Assembly (NCBI GenBank): GCA_022763805.1
Contig: JALERC010000079.1
Span: forward strand, 12,620 to 76,619
From: Mycoplasmatota bacterium
GTDB lineage: Bacteria > Bacillota_I > Bacilli_A > RF39 > UBA660
Direction: 5' to 3'
DNA length: 64,000 nt
Numbering within the stretch: position 1 is the stretch's first letter; every line of letters starts with the position of its first letter. The notes under the pieces are model-generated. The model saw only the letters and a list, made by a program, of their open reading frames with translations, ran no database searches and was not told the DNA's origin. Below are positions 1 through 59,344 of this stretch, piece after piece. Both the position numbers and the translations under genes were made by a program.

Positions 1-721
1 TAGGAATAGAAATTTCATTATTTTCTAATCTTTTTACTAACCCTTGAATTTCATTACCAAAATTTCTACTGTAAGCAGTTTTAATTTCTTCATCAGTTTT
101 TAATAAATCTTCTAAATATCTTTTTCTATTTTCTGTATCTTGTTTCAACTTTTCATTAACAGTATTTAAACCACTATTTAAATTATTAGAAATAGCAGTT
201 AATTCAGCTTGATATTTATCTAATTCTTCATGATATAATCTATCATTTTCTGCTTGAGCACCAAGAGCATTATTTTTTAAAGCGTTATCTCTACTTAATT
301 CTCTATTAGCTTGAATTCTTTCGTTATATAATTTTTCGTCAGATTCACTAAGTTCACCATCACCAAATCTTCTATTATCACGATTATTTTTTGCAATTAT
401 TTTATTATTTGCGGTAATATGTTCTCTTAATTTTTCTTGAACTTGGTGATTTGCATAAATTCTTTCATTAACGTTATTAATTCTATTTTGAATTTCCTTC
501 ATTTTTTCTACAGCTAAGTCGTGTTCTGAACCTTTTGTATAACCAGATTTTTCTATTTCTTCAATTTCTTTTAGTTCTCTTTTATAATTTTCAATTCTAG
601 CATCAACTTTTTCAATCTCAGCATTTCTTAATGCAACATCATCAATATCTAATTGACCAGCTTTAATTCTTGCTGCTAGACTATTAAGTGCATTTATCAT
701 TTCTTCTTTATTCATAAGCAT
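1..721 (-). CDS. Partial CDS (N-terminal ~240 aa; continues past window start): Asn/Glu/Lys-rich coiled-coil protein, begins MLMNKEEMINALNSLAARIKAGQLD
   Basis: Hand translation of the reverse strand gives an open frame from ATG at 721-719 to position 1. Its ATG overlaps the upstream gene's stop (TAATG at 719-723). Strong heptad-like E/K/N/L composition, no TM segment. Confidence 0.5.
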   Translation of the reverse strand, partial: MLMNKEEMINALNSLAARIKAGQLDIDDVALRNAEIEKVDARIENYKRELKEIEEIEKSGYTKGSEHDLAVEKMKEIQNRINNVNERIYANHQVQEKLREHITANNKIIAKNNRDNRRFGDGELSESDEKLYNERIQANRELSRDNALKNNALGAQAENDRLYHEELDKYQAELTAISNNLNSGLNTVNEKLKQDTENRKRYLEDLLKTDEEIKTAYSRNFGNEIQGLVKRLENNEISIP

Positions 722-2088
722 TATCTCCTATTTCTATATTCCATCTTAATTTCGTATTGTATATTTTGATTATTTTTAATATCTAATATACTATTAACTT
801 CAAAGTTATATTCCTTAAATTTGTTAAATAATTCTTCTTCAGTATAATAATTATCATCAATTACTATCCATCCTGCAGTATTTCCGTTTACTTCATCAGT
901 TGTTTTAAAATATTTATAAACTGTAGCTTCTGAATCATCATCTCTAACATAACCCTCAGCAGGACTTGTTAGATAATAAGTATTTTCTTCCTTACTACTA
1001 GCATTACCACTTGGATAATATTTTCTATAATTACCTTCAATATACCATTTCCATACTCTGTCGGTATATTTATAACCTTTTTTTGACTCACATTGTGTAG
1101 TACCTTCACTAGCACAAGAATTAATTGTCCATTCAGACCATTCTCCTTGAGAACAAACTGTATTTTGTGCTACTTGAGTACTGCCATCACATGTATATAA
1201 TATACCTAAAGTAGTTTTAAATTTATCTGTTTGTCTTTCTTCACATTTTGTAGTTGAAGTGACTGTTCCACTAACTTTTGAATCAGTACATATATATTTA
1301 AATGGCCTTGCAATACTGTTTTCTTTTTTTCTATATAAAATTGTTTCTTTAATTGTTCTATAATCTTTAGTTTCAGGTTTATCAATACTATATTTAACAA
1401 CAGGTTCACCTTCATCACCTTTTTTGTTATATCCATCAGGTTTTTCAGATGTGAATGAACCATTATTCCAATAATTAGTACCATTATCTGATTTATACCA
1501 TTTATATGCTTTTATACCATTAGCCTCTCTATACTTATATTCTTCATTTGGAGCTTTATCGTAATATTCAATTACTTCATCACCATTATTTTTATTTGAA
1601 GGATAATATATTTTAGACTTATTACTAAATATTTGTGGTAAAAAAGTAAATCTTATATCTGATACATCAGGTGTAATATCTTTTTCAGTACCTTCAACAT
1701 ATTCTCCATATTCAATATCATCTTTTCCATTACATGATACAAAAGGAGTATATTGATAATTACCACTTTCTAATTTGCAAACTTTAACATAAGTTTTTTC
1801 TCTATCACAAACACCGTATTTTTCTGCTTTTATATAATGTTTATAAGCTAATTCGTTAATTTCTAATCTAACACATTCTCCATATTCTTTAGGTAATAAC
1901 GAATCATATTTAGCATAATATGATTTTGCACCATTAATTAATTCTTTATCTCTGCTTTTTCTAGAAAGAGCTCTATATCCAAAAATAGCAATTGCTATTA
2001 ATATTATGGATGAAACAATTAATAAAGGCTTTAAAAATGGTTTTACTTGTTTAGCCTGATATGTTCCAGAATTATTATCTTGTTCCAT
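721..2088 (-). CDS. Membrane-anchored extracellular protein: one N-terminal TM helix, then a Cys/Tyr/Lys/Gly-rich ectodomain with a WSEW...C...C thrombospondin-type-1-like motif; function unknown
   Basis: 455-aa ORF. Hydrophobic segment LLIVSSIILIAIAIFGY near the N-terminus. 20+ Cys and many YK/NG motifs. Motif CSQGEWSEWTINSCASEGTTQC. Confidence 0.6.
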   Translation of the reverse strand: MEQDNNSGTYQAKQVKPFLKPLLIVSSIILIAIAIFGYRALSRKSRDKELINGAKSYYAKYDSLLPKEYGECVRLEINELAYKHYIKAEKYGVCDREKTYVKVCKLESGNYQYTPFVSCNGKDDIEYGEYVEGTEKDITPDVSDIRFTFLPQIFSNKSKIYYPSNKNNGDEVIEYYDKAPNEEYKYREANGIKAYKWYKSDNGTNYWNNGSFTSEKPDGYNKKGDEGEPVVKYSIDKPETKDYRTIKETILYRKKENSIARPFKYICTDSKVSGTVTSTTKCEERQTDKFKTTLGILYTCDGSTQVAQNTVCSQGEWSEWTINSCASEGTTQCESKKGYKYTDRVWKWYIEGNYRKYYPSGNASSKEENTYYLTSPAEGYVRDDDSEATVYKYFKTTDEVNGNTAGWIVIDDNYYTEEELFNKFKEYNFEVNSILDIKNNQNIQYEIKMEYRNRR

Positions 2089-12357: not shown

Positions 12358-13506
12358 TTAAACTATAGGTTTAACGATATAAGGATCATTTAAAGTTCCT
12401 GTTCCACCAATATAATTTACATTTCCATTAATAGTTAATACCAAATGTAAATAAGCGTAAGTTGCAGCTTTCGATTGAACTGCAGATTTATTTACTTTAT
12501 AAACATATTCTGTACCTTCCATTGCAGCTGTAAGAGTCCAATAACTCTTTGAATAATTAGCTAGATAATTATAATTTTTACAAGATTTAGTTAAAGAGCT
12601 AAAACAATTAGGATCTAATGATGCTTGAAAATATTCATATAGTGCTATAGTACCAATTCCCATTAATTCAGATTTTTTAGAACATTCAATATTACCAGTA
12701 TTATCTATATCTTGTTTAGTTCTTTTTCCAATACAAAATTCTTGTGGAATGATTAGTGATTTAACATCTTTAGAAAATTTTTCTTCATCATTATAAACAC
12801 TTAATATTTTATCTTTAATTCTACTAGCTTGAGTACCTTCAAATTCATTGATACCAGCGTCATATTTTTTTTCTACATTATATCTATTATCCCATGGGAA
12901 TGATTTTTCAACATCATCAGAGAATAATCTAATATTACCATTTTCGTCAATCTTCATAATTCTATACAAAGTATTATTAATTTTTAAATAATTATCAACA
13001 TTTTCTCCACGGAAAATATAATAAGGTTCTCCCGATTCTATTTTATATAATCCATTATCTGTTGTAACAATATTTTCTTCTTTAGTTATTTCATCAGTTA
13101 AATTTTTATACTTGTATGCTTCTCCACAATCTAATTTAGGTGAATAACTATAATCATCTAAATTCTTAAATACTAAAACAGACCCCGAACACATTACATC
13201 TTTTTTAGTATATTTACTCATATCTTTCATATAACCTTCAGCAATAAGATCACTAACTTTAATTTCTACAGTTCCATAAATACTTCCTTCAACCTTTTCA
13301 GGATGATTATTAACATATTGTTTGGCTGATCTAACCATAATGTTTTCAATTTTATCATATGATAAGGCTGAACCAAAAATAGCTTTATAAATTACAAAAA
13401 ATAAAATAAATGCTACAAAAATACCTATAAGAATAAACGCCATTTTAATCATGCCTTTTGTTTTATCATCCATATTACTGAAATCAAACATTCTTTTAAA
13501 GTCCAT
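12358..13506 (-). CDS. Hypothetical membrane-anchored surface protein (N-terminal TM, Cys-containing ectodomain ending GGTGTLNDPYIV)
   Basis: 382-aa ORF. TM helix FILIGIFVAFILFFVIY. No recognisable catalytic motif. Inserted between rplQ and the ECF genes. Confidence 0.5.
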   Translation of the reverse strand: MDFKRMFDFSNMDDKTKGMIKMAFILIGIFVAFILFFVIYKAIFGSALSYDKIENIMVRSAKQYVNNHPEKVEGSIYGTVEIKVSDLIAEGYMKDMSKYTKKDVMCSGSVLVFKNLDDYSYSPKLDCGEAYKYKNLTDEITKEENIVTTDNGLYKIESGEPYYIFRGENVDNYLKINNTLYRIMKIDENGNIRLFSDDVEKSFPWDNRYNVEKKYDAGINEFEGTQASRIKDKILSVYNDEEKFSKDVKSLIIPQEFCIGKRTKQDIDNTGNIECSKKSELMGIGTIALYEYFQASLDPNCFSSLTKSCKNYNYLANYSKSYWTLTAAMEGTEYVYKVNKSAVQSKAATYAYLHLVLTINGNVNYIGGTGTLNDPYIVKPIV

Positions 13507-27386: not shown

Positions 27387-27414
27387 TATTGTGATTGCAA
27401 GAAAAGAGGTAAAT

Positions 27415-28392
27415 ATGAAAGTAACAATATTAGGATCTGGTGCATATGGTATAGCATTAGCATTAATGTTAAATGAAAACAAATGTGAAATTACTATGTG
27501 GGAAAGATTTGATGACAAAGCACAAGAACTTATTAAAACAAGAGAAAACAAAAAAGTACTACCAGGAGTTAAAATACCTGAAAATATTAAAATTACAAGT
27601 GATCTAGAAGAAAGCATGAAAAATAGTGAATTAATAATTATTGCTATTCCAGCAGGATTTGTAGATGAAGTATCAGTTAAAATGAAAAATTATATTACGA
27701 AAGAACAACATATATGTATAGCAAGTAAAGGTATCGAACAAGATACATGTTTATTTGTTGATGATGTTGTAAAAAAATATATTAAAACAAGAAGAATAGC
27801 TGTTATATCTGGACCATCATTTGCAATAGACATTGCTAAATATGTCCCAATTGGATTAACATTATCTTCTAAGAATAAACAAACTATTAAAGTTTGTAAA
27901 AAAGCGCTTGAAAATAGAAATCTAAAATTAAGAGAGAATAACGATATTATAGGTACAGAAATATGTGGTTCGATAAAAAATGTTATAGCAATTGCATCTG
28001 GAATGATTGATGGAATGGGACTTCCTGAATCAACACAAGCAATGTTTATTACCGAATCATTACATGATATTAAAGAATTAATCAAAGCATTAGGTGGAGA
28101 TGGAAAAACAATCCTATCATTTGCAGGATTTGGTGATTTATTATTAACATGCACTAGTACTAAAAGTAGAAATTTTAGATTTGGTAAACTTATAGGCGAA
28201 AAAAAATCAAAAGAAGAAATTAATGAATTTATAAATTCTACTACAATTGAAGGTTTATATACATTGAAATCTATTCATAAATTAATAAAAAATAAAAAAG
28301 TTGATATTCCTATTATAGATTTAATATATGATATTGTATTTAATGATGAAAACCCTGACGAAATAAAAAGATTTTTAATAAAAAAACAATAA
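27415..28392 (+). CDS. gpsA: NAD(P)H-dependent glycerol-3-phosphate dehydrogenase
   Basis: MKVTILGSGAYGIALALML Rossmann N-terminus and conserved GpsA core. Start placed at the SD-supported ATG. Confidence 0.9.
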   Translation: MKVTILGSGAYGIALALMLNENKCEITMWERFDDKAQELIKTRENKKVLPGVKIPENIKITSDLEESMKNSELIIIAIPAGFVDEVSVKMKNYITKEQHICIASKGIEQDTCLFVDDVVKKYIKTRRIAVISGPSFAIDIAKYVPIGLTLSSKNKQTIKVCKKALENRNLKLRENNDIIGTEICGSIKNVIAIASGMIDGMGLPESTQAMFITESLHDIKELIKALGGDGKTILSFAGFGDLLLTCTSTKSRNFRFGKLIGEKKSKEEINEFINSTTIEGLYTLKSIHKLIKNKKVDIPIIDLIYDIVFNDENPDEIKRFLIKKQ

Positions 28393-28396
28393 AAAA

Positions 28397-28423
28397 AAAT
28401 TAGGATTATTTCCTAATTTTTTT
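28397..28423. terminator. Bidirectional intrinsic terminator: 9-bp stem AAATTAGGA/TCCTAATTT, loop TTATT, A-run 5' and T-run 3'
   Basis: Perfect inverted repeat between convergent gpsA (+) and the 88-aa gene (-). Confidence 0.8.
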
Positions 28424-28688
28424 ATTGCTCATAATCATTTTTAAACATAGGTAAAAAAATGTTTGCTAAATATTGTTTTGTCTCTGCATCTTCTATTGTT
28501 TCTATTCCAAACTTTCTAGTTGGTAATACAATAACTTTTGCATACTTAACATTTTCTGATAAATCACCATTTGATAAATTTTCTACTAACATTAGATAGT
28601 AAATGTTTTTTTCTTCATAAGTTTCACAAACTGTATATGACTTTCCATCTGTCAAATTTAAGATATCTAATTTTTCTATGAAATTCAT
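28422..28688 (-). CDS. Small acidic protein, DUF1292 (UPF0473/YrzB)-like
   Basis: 88 aa. LNLTDGKSYTV...YYLMLV...IETIEDAETKQYLANIF resembles the DUF1292 pattern. Start overlaps the upstream stop (ATGA). Confidence 0.4.
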   Translation of the reverse strand: MNFIEKLDILNLTDGKSYTVCETYEEKNIYYLMLVENLSNGDLSENVKYAKVIVLPTRKFGIETIEDAETKQYLANIFLPMFKNDYEQ

Positions 28689-30619
28689 AGTGATCTACCT
28701 CCCATTTCTTGTTGAAGTTCTTGAACTTTAGTGACATCGTTAATATTCCAGAAACCTTCAGCTTGATTATTTTCACCAGTTAGACAAGCACTAATTTCTC
28801 CTCCTTGATCAACAAGTTTTTGAATACTGTTATCATCTTGGACAAATTTAAATGATCCATCTGGCATTTTAATAGTAACACCAATAATATCTCTTTCTAA
28901 ACTTCTTTCATGAATAGGTGTATATGGATTTGTTCTATTTACAGCATCATACTGATTATTATATATATCAGCACCTTCATTTACAGTAATTTTATCACCC
29001 ATAGATATTTGAGAATAGATTTCATTTTTTAACATACCATCATCTAATTCATTTCCGTGTGTCATATCTTCTATAGTTGTTTCTATTTCTTGATTAGTAG
29101 GTTCAGGTATACTATTTGACAAGTTATTAATTAATGGTGAGGCAGCTAGTGTAACAGTAATAGCGGCAATAACTGCTGCAGCAACTTTTTTAATTTTATT
29201 TTTTACATCTTCTTTTTTAAGTTTAGAACGTACCATTGAAACTATTCCTAATTGTTGTGGAGCGTTATTAACCTCATTTATTTCTTCATTATTCGAAATT
29301 TCATTATTATTGTTTACATTTTGTTCGTTTGATAATTCATGATAGAATGAAGCTTCTTCAATTTTAACATCAGGAACTTGTTCTAAAATATTTTTAACAT
29401 TGCTATTTACATATTCTTTTCTGCATTGTAAAGAACTTCTTATAGATTTATATTGAGCTAACCTGTTAGAATCTAATCTCATTTGAGATTTATCTATCTC
29501 TTCACTATAAGCTCTTTTTTTCATTCTTTCCACCATATCATGATGTTTTGAATAATCACCTACTAGTTCTTTTCCATCAGAAATAATTCTATTTAATTCT
29601 AATAATCTATTTTCTAATTCTACTCTTTCCTCTGATGTAATATTAACATCGCATAATTGATCAAGAACAACATTTCTATCTTCTATATATAGATTAGTAA
29701 TCTCATTATAATCATTTCTAAAATCTTCTAATTCTTTATATCTTTCTAATTTTTCAATTCTTTCTATTCTATTTCTTAAATTTTCTTTTGTTGTTTCTTT
29801 ATATTGGTAATTATTAGGGTCTTTTAATTTTTCTTCTAAATCATTTATTAAATTATCATATTTCTCAATTTCTTCATTTCTTTTTATTTCATCTAAATCA
29901 TTATAATTAGAAAATAATCTTTTTTTATAAATATTTAAATCTATTAATGCATCATCAATTGATAAAGATCCATTTTGTAATTCACTAATCATTCCATTTA
30001 GTTGTGATTCAAAATTTAATTTTAATAATTGTCTAGATTCTCTTCTTGTACCTATTTTAATTAATAATTCCTCATAATCTTTGTCGTATTTATTAACTTC
30101 ATTTTCAAAAAATTTAATTTTCTTTTCTTCACTACTAGCGTTATCTAAGAAACCTTGATGTATATCTATTTCTTCTGATAAATTGTTTAGTTGATCATTA
30201 TTGGTTTTAATTTTATTATTATTGTTTTCTATAATTCTTGAATTAATATCAAATTCATCAAGGATACGTTCATAATCATAACTATTTTTATCTAAATTAT
30301 TCATTTTTTGTTCATATTCTTTATTTAATTCTATTAATTTATTATTATCTTCAGTTAATTGATTAATTATTTCAGATATACTATTAGCTTCAGCAGATAA
30401 AATACTTATTTTTTCTCTTTTTGGTTGTAAAAATTCATCAAATCTTTTATTTAATTCTTCTTCATCAGGTTTTTTTAAATTTCTTGCTTTATTTTCAAGT
30501 TCCCTTATTTCATCACTTAAATTTTCTATTGCTTCATATCTAGCATTTTCATCCATAATCTGAAAATTAACATTATTTTTTAACTCTTGTAATAATTGTA
30601 ATAATTGTTCTTTATTCAT
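28685..30619 (-). CDS. Large coiled-coil protein with a single TM helix near residue ~490 and a ~140-aa extracellular C-terminal domain; function unknown
   Basis: 644 aa. The N-terminal ~480 aa are Asn/Glu/Lys/Leu-rich with heptad periodicity. TM KIKKVAAAVIAAITVTLAASPLI. Strong RBS (AGGAGG) and a consensus promoter upstream. Confidence 0.6.
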   Translation of the reverse strand: MNKEQLLQLLQELKNNVNFQIMDENARYEAIENLSDEIRELENKARNLKKPDEEELNKRFDEFLQPKREKISILSAEANSISEIINQLTEDNNKLIELNKEYEQKMNNLDKNSYDYERILDEFDINSRIIENNNNKIKTNNDQLNNLSEEIDIHQGFLDNASSEEKKIKFFENEVNKYDKDYEELLIKIGTRRESRQLLKLNFESQLNGMISELQNGSLSIDDALIDLNIYKKRLFSNYNDLDEIKRNEEIEKYDNLINDLEEKLKDPNNYQYKETTKENLRNRIERIEKLERYKELEDFRNDYNEITNLYIEDRNVVLDQLCDVNITSEERVELENRLLELNRIISDGKELVGDYSKHHDMVERMKKRAYSEEIDKSQMRLDSNRLAQYKSIRSSLQCRKEYVNSNVKNILEQVPDVKIEEASFYHELSNEQNVNNNNEISNNEEINEVNNAPQQLGIVSMVRSKLKKEDVKNKIKKVAAAVIAAITVTLAASPLINNLSNSIPEPTNQEIETTIEDMTHGNELDDGMLKNEIYSQISMGDKITVNEGADIYNNQYDAVNRTNPYTPIHERSLERDIIGVTIKMPDGSFKFVQDDNSIQKLVDQGGEISACLTGENNQAEGFWNINDVTKVQELQQEMGGRSL

Positions 30620-30647
30620 ATTTTCCTCCTAGTATCCTACTATAAAA

Positions 30648-30676
30648 ATAATACCATTTAAGAAAATAAATGTCAA
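30648..30676 (-). promoter_or_regulatory. Near-consensus sigma-A promoter for the 644-aa gene: -35 TTGACA, 17-nt spacer, extended -10 TGGTATTAT
   Basis: Reverse-strand reading gives TTGACAtttattttcttaaatggTATTAT, followed by taGGAGGaaaatATG. Confidence 0.6.
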
Positions 30677-30711
30677 TTAAATAAAAGAAGACGGATTTCC
30701 GTCTTCTTTTA
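30672..30711 (-). terminator. Intrinsic terminator after rpsR (stem AAAAGAAGACGG/CCGTCTTCTTTT). The hairpin includes the rpsR stop codon.
   Basis: 12-bp perfect inverted repeat at 30683-30710 followed by a U-rich tract on the minus strand. Confidence 0.8.
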
Positions 30712-30927
30712 TTTAACGAATGGAATTAAAGCCATGAAACGAGCTTTTTTAACTTCGTTAGCAATATGTCTTTGATGTTTTGAGCAAGCACCAGTAATTC
30801 TTCTTGGTAAAATTTTACCTTTATCAGCACTTACATATTTTTTTATAATATCAGCATCTTTATAATCTACTGATTTTCCAGCACACATTTGACATACTTT
30901 TTTCTTTTTTCTATAAAATTCTGCCAT
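30709..30927 (-). CDS. rpsR: 30S ribosomal protein S18
   Basis: Conserved S18 sequence. Confidence 0.95.
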
Positions 30928-31827: not shown

Positions 31828-32337
31828 TTATTTATTTTTAATAAAAGTAGTTATGCAATCTAATATGAAAACAAATAATAATATATATGTTATTGAATAA
31901 GGAATTTTTAAAATTAATCTTTTTAATATTGGATTTATTACATAAATAAATAAAATAGAAACTGCACCCCAAATAAAAGCCATTTCCAATGATATATAAT
32001 TGCCAATGTTATATTTATGGTTTTTATAACTCCAAAAGATTATACCAAATATTTTTTCAATTAATATTCCACCGAGCAGTTCTAGGCAAGAAAGAAAAAT
32101 AGAAAGAATAAAAAAAACAATTATTGTCTCAATCCATCTAGGCATATGAAGATTAATAAAAAAATATCTTGATAATACTAAAATTATTACTGTACCAATG
32201 CCATATATAGGTGTAAATGGTCCATACATAATACCACTTTTAAAACCAGACTTTGTTATTAAAGCAAGCGATGTTTCCAAAATATATCCTAAAAATGAAT
32301 AAACAAAAAAACAATTTAAATAATACATTATTATCAC
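31828..32337 (-). CDS. Small polytopic membrane protein, DUF1113 / 'putative ABC-transporter type IV' family-like
   Basis: 169 aa, 4-5 TM. N-terminal FFVYSFLGYILE motif typical of PF06541. Confidence 0.45.
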   Translation of the reverse strand: MIIMYYLNCFFVYSFLGYILETSLALITKSGFKSGIMYGPFTPIYGIGTVIILVLSRYFFINLHMPRWIETIIVFFILSIFLSCLELLGGILIEKIFGIIFWSYKNHKYNIGNYISLEMAFIWGAVSILFIYVINPILKRLILKIPYSITYILLFVFILDCITTFIKNK

Positions 32338-37789: not shown

Positions 37790-37826
37790 ATTATATAGAA
37801 AAAAGAGGAAATTATTCACCCTCTTT
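37790..37826 (-). terminator. Intrinsic terminator after ftsH (stem AAGAGG/CCTCTT then T-run); stop codon inside the loop
   Basis: Inverted repeat at 37803-37825 followed by TTTTTT on the minus strand. Confidence 0.55.
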
Positions 37827-39812
37827 TTCTTCTATTTTTTTTATAAGTTCTTCTTTAGTCATCTTAGAAGCACCTTTTATTCCTTTTTCTCTTGCTAATT
37901 CAATCAATTCATCAGTAGTTAAATCATCTAAACTAGCATCTTTAAAATCACTTTTATCAACTTCACCATCTTCATCAGGTAAACATCCATTATCAACTAA
38001 ATATTCAATTTGTTCTTTAGTTAATGTTTCATGTTCTAATAAAGTATTAGCAATCAAATCAAGTAATTTTTTATTTTCTTTTATTGTTTTAGTTGTTCTT
38101 TTGTAACATTCGTCGATAATTTTTCTCATTTCTTGGTCAATTTCATATGCTACTTGACTTGAGAAGTTTTTAGATTTATTGTAATCTCTACCTAAGAATA
38201 CACTTGATTCTTGATGTTCAAATTGAACAGGTCCTAAATCACTCATACCATATTCTGTAACCATAGCACGAGCTATTTTAGTTGCTTTTTCAAAATCATT
38301 ATGTGCTCCTGTAGTAATTTCATTAAATTCAATTTCTTCTGCAACACGTCCACCAAGTAATCCACAAATTGTTTCTAATAGTTCAGTTTTTGTAGATAAA
38401 TAAGTTTCTTCTTTAGGTAACATTAGATTATATCCACCAGCTGCACCACGAGGAACAATTGTAATTTTTTGTACTTCATTAGCACCATCTAATTTTATAC
38501 CTAAAACAGCATGTCCTGCTTCATGATAAGCTACAACTCTCTTTTCTTTTTCTGTATATTTATGAGAAGTCTTAGCAGGTCCCATAAGAACTCTATCATG
38601 AGCTTCATCAATTTCTGTCATTGTTATTTGTGATTTGCCACGTCTTACAGCAAGTAATGCAGCTTCATTTAATAAATTTTCCAAATCTGCCCCACTTAAT
38701 CCAACTGTACGTTTAGCAATATTTTTGAAATTTACTTGATTAGCAAATTTTTTGCCTCTAGCATGTACTTCTAGAATAGCTTCTCTTCCTTTTACATCTG
38801 GTAAATTTACTGTTACTTGTCTATCAAAACGTCCAGGTCTTAATAAAGCAGGATCTAATACGTCAGGTCTGTTAGTAGCAGCAAGAATAATAATACCTTC
38901 ATTAGCACCAAATCCATCCATTTCAGTAAGTAATTGGTTTAATGTTTGTTCACGTTCATCATGACCGCCACCGATACCAGAACCACGTTGACGACCTACA
39001 GCATCAATTTCATCTATAAAAATCAAACAAGGTGCAGTTTGTTTTGCTTCTTTAAACATATCTCTTACACGTGAAGCACCAACACCTACAAATAATTCAA
39101 CAAATTCAGATCCACTTATATAATAGAATGGAACATTAGCTTCACCAGCAACTGATTTAGCAAGTAATGTTTTACCAGTTCCTGGAGGACCTACTAAAAG
39201 TACACCCTTAGGAATTCTAGCACCCATATCTTGGAATCTTTTTGGATTTTTTAAGAAATCAATTAATTCTTTAACTTCTTCTTTTTCTTCATCTAATCCA
39301 GCAACTTGATCAAAAGTTACTTTATCTTTACCTGAAGTTAATCTAGCACGACTTTTTCCAAAGTCCATTGATTTATTAGCTCCACCCATTTGTTTAGTTA
39401 GGAAAAAGAATCCTAAACCAATTATTAAAATTGTTGGTAGAACATTCATCATAAATAGTATAAGAGCACTTGAATCTCTATCGTTAGTTGTATCTAATTT
39501 AAATTTATGTTCTTTTTGAGCATCATAAATTACAGATATAGATTCATTTGTTAATGGTATTCTTACAAAAAATGATTCATCTTTTTTGTAATCTTCCATT
39601 GTACCTGTTATTTCATAAACACCAGCACGTTCTAGTGGTGAAATAACAACATCTGTGACTTCGCCTTTTTCAATAGCTGTAATAAATTCATCATATGATA
39701 ATACATTTATCTTTTGTCCTAAAACATTAGTTAAATATAATATACACATCATTATTAAAATTAATGCTATATAAGGCACAAATCCTTTTTTCACATTTTT
39801 TTTATTCATCAC
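37812..39812 (-). CDS. ftsH: ATP-dependent zinc metalloprotease FtsH with an unusual C-terminal HeH/Rho-N-like tail
   Basis: AAA Walker [17 protein letters not shown] zinc site. The last ~45 aa ([33 protein letters not shown]) resemble the Rho N-terminal HeH motif. Confidence 0.9.
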
Positions 39813-45994: not shown

Positions 45995-46250
45995 AAATTA
46001 TTATTCCAAGTTGATCATTAACATATAAAAAAACCACACCCTAAACTAAGGGCGTGATTACGCGGTACCACCTTATTCATAATATATTTAAAATATATTA
46101 CCTCAAACATTTAACGCATGTATACGTTCTAACCTACATATCGATTAAAAAGTTCCGGAACCATTCGAAATAGACATCTTATATTTAGCTCTCACCTTAT
46201 CTAAACTCTCTTTGATAATATTCTATTTTTCTTTCCATCACAACTTGTTG
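45995..46250 (-). promoter_or_regulatory. T-box riboswitch leader of metG. It has an AGAGA box, a GGTGA kink-turn, an AUG (Met) specifier, the T-box sequence AAGGTGGTACCGCG and a terminator (CACGCCC...GGGTGTG + U8). The promoter is TTGAAG-N17-TATAAT at 46256-46284.
   Basis: Reverse complement of 46061-46078 is the canonical T-box motif. A terminator hairpin at ~46030-46060 is followed by TTTTTTT. Confidence 0.8.
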
Positions 46251-58661: not shown

Positions 58662-59114
58662 TTACATTCTTTTATTTTTAAAAAAATCTTGTAAAATTTC
58701 TAAAGATTCTTCATTTTTCAAATTTATAACTTCACACATTTTATGTGTATTTTTTTCATTAAATAAAGTACCTATACTTTCAACATATCCAAATCTTTTT
58801 GATTCAATACCATAATATATTTTTTTAATTCTTGATTGTATTATTGCGCCACAACACATTAAACATGGTTCTAAAGTAACATACAATTCACATTCGTCTA
58901 AATGCCATGTTTTCATTTTTTTGCACGCTTTTTCGATAGCTATAATTTCTGCATGTTTTATAGAATTTTTTTTCTTTTCTTTCTCATTGTGTCCTCTAGA
59001 TATAATTTTACCATTTCTTACTATTATTGCCCCAACAGGAACATCATCTGATTTTAACGATTTTTTAGCTTCTTTTATCATTTCTTTAATATATTCTTCT
59101 TTCATACATATCAC
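58662..59114 (-). CDS. tadA: tRNA-specific adenosine deaminase
   Basis: HAEIIAI...PCLMCCGAI deaminase zinc motifs. Confidence 0.9.
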   Translation of the reverse strand: MICMKEEYIKEMIKEAKKSLKSDDVPVGAIIVRNGKIISRGHNEKEKKKNSIKHAEIIAIEKACKKMKTWHLDECELYVTLEPCLMCCGAIIQSRIKKIYYGIESKRFGYVESIGTLFNEKNTHKMCEVINLKNEESLEILQDFFKNKRM

Positions 59115-59117
59115 CTA

Positions 59118-59196
59118 TAAAAAAAGCGCACACACTTAGAGGATCTTAAGGCTGCTGAATTCCTTCTCTGACCTGGTTCAACCATAAATGTTGCGC
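59118..59196 (-). ncRNA. ffs: Signal recognition particle RNA, small (4.5S-type). Core: GCGCAACAUUUAUGGUUGAACCAGGUCAGAGAAGGAAUUCAGCAGCCUUAAGAUCCUCUAAGUGUGUGCGC + U-tract.
   Basis: Reverse complement contains the domain IV consensus ACCAGGUCAG...GGAA...CAGCAGCC. Terminal helix GCGCA/UGCGC. Promoter TTGATT-N17-TATATT at 59203-59231. Same tadA/dnaX neighbourhood as B. subtilis scr. Confidence 0.7.
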
Positions 59197-59344
59197 AATA
59201 TAAATATACTATATATTAATAAATTAATCAATACAAATCAGATAATTATAGACTATTTTTTAATATAAATTCTCTATATTTTTATTTCCTGAGAAATATA
59301 AAACATTTTTGAGTAAAATATATTTCCTGAGAAATATAAAATAC

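Follow-up and report, generated by a model that had tools for sequence, protein, structure and literature searches.

The 64,000-nucleotide (nt) stretch of contig JALERC010000079.1 from a Mycoplasmatota bacterium, hereafter called the window, contains a two-gene unit which encodes a coiled-coil membrane protein of 644 amino acids (aa) (gene 1) and a small acidic protein of 88 aa (gene 2) related to DUF1292. As judged from sequence comparison, the pairing of gene 1 with a DUF1292-like gene is an evolutionarily recurrent module, and it gives DUF1292 its first recurring gene partner. For the gene 1 protein we tentatively prefer the reading as an envelope-spanning structural scaffold or positional tether, with neither an enzymatic nor a mobile-element function. 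The coding features of the unit, with gene borders taken from the list of open reading frames (ORFs), are the following.

28685..30619, minus strand: gene 1, a bitopic membrane protein of 644 aa with predicted N-in/C-out orientation and orthologues in L001, L065, L087 and L089
29255..30619, minus strand: cytoplasmic region of gene 1 (aa 1-455), coiled-coil-like by heptad pattern and composition
29129..29185, minus strand: transmembrane (TM) helix of gene 1 (aa 479-497, VAAAVIAAITVTLAASPLI), the sole hydrophobic window above threshold, with a Lys-rich flank before it
28718..29014, minus strand: conserved, predicted extracellular C-terminal domain of gene 1 (aa ~536-634), acidic, aromatic-rich and beta-rich
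28422..28688, minus strand: gene 2, an acidic cytoplasmic protein of 88 aa, divergent relative of DUF1292 (PF06949/UPF0473), coupled to gene 1 by ATGA

The features named in the initial annotation of this DNA were all found in place, on the minus strand. This includes the proposed ATGA overlap, in which the start codon of gene 2 (ATG, 28688..28686) shares its letters with the stop codon of gene 1 (TGA, 28687..28685).

The pairing was assessed in nine distinct contexts of the gene 1 family (L-numbers denote the loci or contigs compared, P-numbers database proteins). A DUF1292-like small gene overlaps or abuts the stop codon of gene 1 in six of them, namely in the window clade (L001, L065, L084 and L087), in L089, and next to P0017/P0026, P0136, P0029 and P0022. 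Conservation of the pair, which the initial annotation had named as a point to check, reaches well beyond the window clade. In L085 and L088 another bitopic protein (215 or 246 aa), unrelated to the first, is encoded as well and is overlapped by a DUF1292 gene of 80 or 82 aa (L085:12436-13325 and L088:7508-8493); this second pair is located just 5' of ileS. In L095 a soluble coiled-coil protein of 497 aa, which has neither a TM helix nor an ectodomain, is followed by a DUF1292-like gene. Single-pass membrane proteins and coiled-coil proteins seem to be recurrent partners of DUF1292 genes, and judging from the second pair of L085/L088 and the soluble pair of L095 the partnership seems to be tied to the coiled coil in the cytoplasm rather than to the ectodomain. 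The soluble pair lies in a tandem array (L095:1-5919) composed of a 553-aa plus 82-aa pair and the 497-aa plus 79-aa pair, with more coiled-coil ORFs flanking them. At L092:4001-8682 three gene 1 paralogues (398, 367 and 577 aa) stand in a row without small partner genes.

The protein encoded by gene 2 has neither a signal peptide nor a hydrophobic N-terminus (net charge -6, pI 4.5), which fits the small (~75-95 aa) acidic cytoplasmic type of DUF1292 proteins. Gene 2 orthologues are 47-64% identical. The search of gene 2 against Pfam gave no match at E <= 10, and the gathering score of PF06949 (24 bits) was not reached. PF06949 is matched at 8.8e-9 by the 84-aa gene which overlaps the distant gene 1 relatives P0017/P0026 (L085/L088), at 2e-5 (25.8 bits) by the small gene of the second pair in L085, and below threshold by those of L093 (1.3e-3) and of the second pair in L088 (5.5e-3). 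A seven-sequence alignment of gene 2 with partner proteins is almost gapless. With hhalign the profile of gene 2 from the window clade matched the PF06949-matching partners over 81 columns and full length (probability 96.8%, E 2.1e-10), and the single L085 protein with a probability of 89.8% (E 1.8e-6). Due to this profile-profile match gene 2 is considered a divergent relative of DUF1292, so that the likeness proposed initially is supported at the level of profiles and not by a direct Pfam match. In the literature searched, DUF1292, YrzB, UPF0473 and lmo1501 are mentioned incidentally only, and no function is given.

Between gene 1 and its counterpart in a 98%-identical strain there are 27.5 synonymous and 14.5 non-synonymous differences (pN/pS 0.12); gene 1 is therefore a real gene under purifying selection. 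The GC content at its third codon positions (8.8%) equals that of the neighbouring genes (8.7-10.3%), hence a recent foreign origin is not indicated. The first 455 residues are made up of 14.7% Glu, 14.1% Asn, 11% Leu and 8.8% Lys and contain only four Pro and six Gly. A local, register-free heptad score gave z = 5.3 against shuffled sequences for the N-terminal part and 0.8 for the C-terminal part, with values of 3.3-5.9 in four orthologues; a global Fourier test for a 3.5-residue periodicity in gene 1 was not significant. The TM window reaches a Kyte-Doolittle value of 2.24 (runner-up window 0.65), and in an AlphaFold2 model of the C-terminal fragment a helix is placed at fragment residues 17-38, which correspond to protein residues 470-491. 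The flanks of the helix carry net charges of +6 on the N-terminal and -2 on the C-terminal side, therefore the long N-terminal region is predicted to be cytoplasmic and the last 147 residues to lie outside. The heptad score, the position of the helix and this charge asymmetry agree with the anatomy given in the initial annotation, a cytoplasmic coiled-coil-like region followed by a single TM helix and an ectodomain that no named family covers.

The aligned orthologues are conserved at three places: the N-terminal ~15 residues (MxKExLLxLLxELKN), the juxtamembrane segment and the C-terminal ~100 residues; the middle is variable. The rod diverges so fast that tblastn misses it even in L001. On a low-coverage contig (2.5x; L084:70-1971) the gene 1 orthologue is split into ORFs of 350 and 175 aa, due to either a sequencing error or a pseudogene. 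Three public metagenome proteins, P0004, P0008 and P0009, are read-through or chimeric versions of window genes; in P0009, for instance, residues 1-63 of gene 2 continue into a glycosyltransferase. All three are probably artefacts of assembly and should not be taken for domain fusions.

No match for gene 1 was found in Pfam, NCBIfam, PHROGs (best E-value 0.29) or PADLOC (none), so that none of the known families, which the initial annotation had suggested to consult, claims this protein. Word-indexed searches with the window genes yielded nothing beyond near-identical sequences from pig gut and three closer species. The orphan status of both genes suggested by these searches was overturned by an exhaustive HMMER search, in which a profile of the C-terminal part of gene 1 identified 135 representatives of 50%-identity clusters. 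A domain-only hidden Markov model (HMM) confirmed 134 of the 135 and showed that the domain closes the protein, followed by a median of 3 residues; P0144, which matched only coiled-coil columns of the profile, was dropped. The earlier statement that gene 1 is without a recognisable family thus holds for named families, but the protein is part of an unnamed family of considerable size (at least 134 clusters at 50% identity).

This 'YEGFYN' family is characterized by a C-terminal domain of ~100 aa with the motif IYxNxYDA...R.V.G...YEGF(Y/W)N..DV, which is present at the very end of the gene 1 protein and is matched there by the domain HMM at 4.8e-33. The common layout of the family consists of a charged, Pro/Gly-poor N-terminal region of 200-1000 residues, one TM helix and usually 150-220 residues beyond it (129-298 overall). 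Gene 1, with its helix at aa 479-497 and 147 aa thereafter, shows the same architecture. About a quarter of the representatives have no segment above the hydrophobicity threshold or are apparently truncated. All loci examined for the family have 21-30% GC, and the carriers are all very AT-rich uncultured gut Firmicutes. The window clade itself resembles RF39. Candidatus Faecimonas, among the related genomes, is placed in RF39 by GTDB (PMC8035907).

Further searches gave no additional relatives. Pfam revealed no consistent domain in 88 full-length family members, neither 50,697 phage records nor 72,556 plasmid records gave a tblastn match to the domain consensus, and JGI metagenome contigs, scanned twice with family alignments, contained none. 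A 70-residue alignment did not suffice to establish an N-terminal motif common to the paired subfamilies. A C-terminal 'G..[ST][RK]' tail was tried as a proxy for pairing; it failed to classify all checked cases and was not used for counts. An assignment of gene 1 to SMC-type ATPases was rejected, as the only match to TIGR02168 was at noise level (E 0.42, 8.2 bits versus a cut-off of 567) and covered coiled-coil residues. The 'significant' WD40 matches of the profile to PDB sequences (E 1e-21) are an artefact, since they add up many weak repeat matches, of which none passes by itself.

The two genes form an autonomous operon which is translationally coupled and has a conserved promoter of its own. 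Its expression signals and boundaries are listed here.

30648..30676, minus strand: sigma-70-type promoter with -35 box TTGACA (30676..30671), 17-nt spacer and extended -10 box TGgTATTAT
30656..30648, minus strand: extended -10 box from the promoter scan, with TG at 30656..30655 and the hexamer at 30653..30648
30625..30630, minus strand: Shine-Dalgarno (SD) sequence AGGAGG of gene 1, 5 nt 5' of the ATG at 30619; (T)AGGAGG is conserved in orthologous loci
28698..28703, minus strand: internal SD sequence GGGAGG of gene 2 within the last codons of gene 1, in the sequence ..ATGGGAGGTAGATCACTATGA..
30681..30712, minus strand: terminator of the rpsF-ssb-rpsR operon and 5' boundary of the unit, AAAAGAAGACGG-AAAT-CCGTCTTCTTTT, followed by a T-rich tail
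28391..28423, both strands: A/T-rich hairpin, bidirectional terminator shared by gene 2 and the convergent gpsA, AAAAAAATTAGGA-AATAA-TCCTAATTTTTTT, with T-runs on both strands

The promoter of the unit is the top-scoring site of the scan (11/12 plus TG). Promoter-like sites are not enriched in this AT-rich DNA, with 34 found and 37 expected from shuffled sequence. Five orthologous loci, whose intergenic DNA has otherwise diverged, keep the hairpin with its T-run, TTGAC(A/T), the 17-nt spacing, TGnTAnnAT and AGGAGG. The case for a functional promoter is therefore based on the conservation of these elements amid diverged sequence, and not on the frequency of matches. Both the textbook promoter TTGACA-N17-TGgTATTAT and the AGGAGG sequence, as described in the initial annotation, are confirmed in this way, and the unit may be highly expressed.

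Of the two clean intrinsic terminators described at the same time, the one after rpsR stands: it is a 14-bp hairpin with T-run (-18.4 kcal/mol by RNAfold), and a hairpin with T-run is found at this position also in L001, L065, L087 and L089. The hairpin after gene 2, in contrast, is A/T-rich, comprises 13 bp and is weak by E. coli standards (RNAfold -11.1 kcal/mol on the minus strand and -12.5 kcal/mol on the plus strand, the gpsA side). The orthologous loci have a hairpin at this position as well. A consensus terminator scan listed neither of the two.

The terminal codons of gene 1 (..ATG GGA GGT AGA TCA CTA TGA) include the ribosome-binding site (GGAGG) and the ATG of gene 2 and encode the tail 'MGGRSL'. 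For this reason the C-terminus of gene 1 is shaped by translational coupling. Similar purine-rich tails with overlapping or abutting starts are found in L093, L094 and L095, and 'GG' tails are frequent in the gene 1 family.

In the C-terminal part of gene 1 an acidic linker precedes the conserved ~100-residue ectodomain, for which the family motif is LGDxxTI..IYxNxYDA..N..PYF..R.V.G...G....L...GA...AVLT....YEGFYN..DV. A Foldseek search of the predicted ectodomain against the PDB gave no significant match. The best structural neighbours of its core, aligned over 71-91 residues, are SH3b/GW modules (AtlE R2ab 7kwi/4epc, InlB 1m9s, Lmo1076 5jqc and NlpC/P60 6bim). Its predicted extracellular, C-terminal position is shared with them. 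The SH3_3, SH3_8 and GW models of Pfam matched neither the window protein nor any of the 88 family members. According to the model the ectodomain may be a small SH3-like barrel with conserved aromatic residues. It is called an SH3-like barrel, and not a member of the SH3b/GW family, because it is strongly acidic.

For the envelope-spanning scaffold or tether the following arrangement is proposed. The coiled coil would probably dimerise or oligomerise and form a long membrane-anchored cytoplasmic rod, and the ectodomain would probably attach the protein, on the outer side, either to some constituent of the thin wall or to a partner outside the cell. The DUF1292 protein, made in fixed proportion due to translational coupling, would probably bind the cytoplasmic part, since a soluble coiled-coil paralogue without TM helix and ectodomain keeps its own DUF1292 partner. 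To speak of a division or morphogenesis scaffold would be an analogy drawn from the architecture. More doubtful is the wider proposal that DUF1292 is a dedicated cytoplasmic partner (adaptor or assembly factor) of an unrecognised, often multi-copy class of coiled-coil proteins, which are mostly membrane-anchored and to which gene 1 would belong. Class and partner together would constitute a new system, cytoskeletal or tethering, that spans the envelope of reduced-genome gut Bacilli (RF39, Erysipelotrichales-like). Such Bacilli have lost many classical factors of wall synthesis and division.

Several observations weigh against the scaffold reading. The small partner gene is absent in three of the nine contexts (P0113, three tandem paralogues around P0060, and P0065), no characterised homologue was found for either protein, and the putative physical contact between them is read from gene order alone. 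The distant members in L085 (z = 1.8) and L093 (z = 0.13) are without a heptad signal. The ectodomain has a pI of 4.2-4.4, and 98% of the family lie below 6. GW and SH3b modules are basic and bind anionic wall polymers, in contrast to the acidic domain of gene 1; wall binding by this domain is therefore uncertain, and its predicted pI argues against an electrostatic binding of anionic polymers. According to predictions for RF39, most species of the group retain peptidoglycan as a thin wall and have no standard teichoic acid pathway (PMC10868615).

The genomic location of the pair belongs to the same group of observations. The unit is flanked on its 5' side by rpsR (30709..30927, minus strand), ssb and rpsF, and on its 3' side by the convergent gpsA (27412..28392, plus strand), beyond which the S10 ribosomal operon follows. 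Flanking by rpsR and gpsA had been recognized before and is correct; the identities of the flanking genes were taken from the Pfam-annotated orthologous contigs L081, L087 and L089. The pair is found at this junction in genomes in which gpsA is 81-84% identical. Where gpsA is 64-73% identical (L002, L005-L008 and L025), the rpsR-gpsA junction is empty. In other genomes the junction is occupied by a 704-aa protein whose N-terminus is of the prepilin type (L031:11002-13116), by a 156-aa Zn-ribbon TM protein (L003:11151-11621) or by a GT2-like glycosyltransferase (L004:11047-11766). The junction behaves as a hot-spot for cargo in related metagenome-assembled genomes, and the placement of the pair between rpsR and gpsA is a clade-specific insertion. 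Conservation of this location, which the initial annotation had also listed for checking, was not found, as the junction of sister genomes is empty or occupied by different cargo. Since the empty junctions indicate that the unit is dispensable at the level of the lineage, an accessory role fits better than a core division role.

One explanation built on this finding is an accessory, lineage-variable surface module, that is, dispensable hot-spot cargo in which the ectodomain contacts the host, other cells or phage (as receptor or decoy) and does not serve the cell's own morphogenesis. Besides the six empty junctions and the other surface-type cargo, the fast divergence, the tandem paralogues in L092 and L095 and the restriction of the family to gut-associated lineages speak for it. 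However, only ~147 residues lie outside the membrane and the bulk of the protein is cytoplasmic. Moreover the ectodomain is conserved and the cytoplasmic rod variable, whereas diversifying selection on a surface receptor would give the reverse pattern. The codon composition is host-like, with no relatives among the phage and plasmid records or in PADLOC. We regard a surface module as rather unlikely.

A transmembrane signalling pair, in which the ectodomain senses a cue from the envelope or the environment and the rod sequesters or releases a DUF1292 regulator in an anti-sigma-like manner, is also an unlikely explanation, and slightly more so. The canonical DUF1292 gene belongs to the reoM/ireB-ruvX operon, which is linked to cell-wall signalling, and a bitopic N-in/C-out protein with a small outside domain of the ligand-binding type resembles membrane anti-sigma factors and sensors. 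YrzB is labelled 'putative anti-sigma factor' in one comparative table (PMC3814617), but this is a bare annotation. In none of the contexts examined is a sigma factor, kinase or DNA-binding gene coupled to the pair, and a variable coiled coil of 450 residues is atypical for such sensors.

Some copies of the family lie in other neighbourhoods. The pair is found after rplJ-rplL in L093 and near gerA, 5' of ileS, in L085 and L088, and a paralogue is located two genes after sigG in L090; some paralogues thus have sporulation or dcw-distal neighbourhoods (sigG in L090, ileS in L085 and L088). Several family members stand beside gerA, sigG, spoIIM or spoIVB (peptidase S55), which could point to a family of envelope proteins linked to sporulation or germination, with the copy in the window as a remnant. 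This is improbable, as purifying selection acts on the pair in the window clade and a strong vegetative-type sigma-70 promoter is conserved in five species, no sporulation gene occurs in the 64-kb window, and the neighbourhoods differ between subfamilies. That both genes are chance long ORFs in AT-rich low-complexity DNA, as the long Asn/Glu/Lys-rich region and the failure of the word-indexed search to return more than near-identical sequences might suggest, is refuted by conservation, namely by the pN/pS value, the 134 family representatives, the conserved promoter and ribosome-binding site, and orthologues of 31-64% identity in which reading frames, TM helix, domain and ATGA coupling are all preserved.

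Conservation of DUF1292/UPF0473 extends over the Firmicutes, pathogens among them, yet no role is known. Its recurring coupled partnership with coiled-coil, mostly membrane-anchored proteins leads to the testable hypothesis of a physical complex at the membrane. Gene 1 in turn defines an undescribed protein family for which neither Pfam nor NCBIfam has a model. What is known of the envelope of uncultured, genome-reduced gut Bacilli has largely been deduced from the genes they lost; a scaffold that spans the envelope and is strongly promoted could, if true, contribute to the way in which they arrange a thin wall with only a few of the classical factors. For the present the practical benefit is small, as nearly all carriers are uncultured and neither gene is tied to a phenotype.

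The wider window is made up of housekeeping genes (dnaX, mfd, metG, ftsH, tilS, an AbgT transporter and ychF), nearly all of them on the minus strand, and is probably located near the replication origin. The gpsA gene is one of only two sizeable plus-strand genes and stands alone between the rpsF-ssb-rpsR operon and the S10 operon, which this clade brings together. A few further features were observed:

37812..39812, minus strand: FtsH homologue of 666 aa with a C-terminal match to Rho_N (PF07498, E 1.9e-7, aa 628-663), an appendage unusual for FtsH
31828..32337, minus strand: polytopic membrane ORF of 169 aa between rpsF and ychF, without NCBIfam match
12358..13506 and 721..2088, both minus strand: two sizeable ORFs, listed with 382 and 455 aa, without Pfam match
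46045..46250, minus strand: T-box leader (97.9 bits) 5' of the methionyl-tRNA synthetase gene metG
59110..59205, minus strand: small signal recognition particle RNA (55.1 bits)

Among known systems, gene 2 is comparable to DUF1292/UPF0473 proteins of the B. subtilis YrzB type in its acidity, in its size (80-95 aa in that group) and, in a low-confidence model, in predicted beta-strands followed by a C-terminal helix. In contrast to the canonical gene it is coupled to a bitopic coiled-coil protein and not located in a yrzL(reoM/ireB)-ruvX-yrzB operon. The logic of the proposed scaffold is comparable to that of MapZ, EzrA and DivIVA-type proteins. EzrA and gene 1 are both membrane-anchored proteins of Firmicutes with a cytoplasmic rod of ~500 residues composed of helical repeats or coiled coil. 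The TM helix of EzrA is N-terminal and no ectodomain follows, whereas gene 1 has its helix at aa 479-497 followed by an ectodomain, and matches no EzrA model of Pfam or NCBIfam. MapZ/LocZ of streptococci is a bitopic mid-cell protein. Its N-terminal region is cytoplasmic, and beyond one TM helix a small extracellular domain at the C-terminus anchors it to the wall. Its cytoplasmic part is not a long coiled coil, unlike that of gene 1, and we know of no DUF1292 partner for it. No similarity in sequence or in Pfam exists between the two. MapZ and the gene 1 protein share the same layout, with the N-terminus inside, one TM helix and a small C-terminal domain outside.

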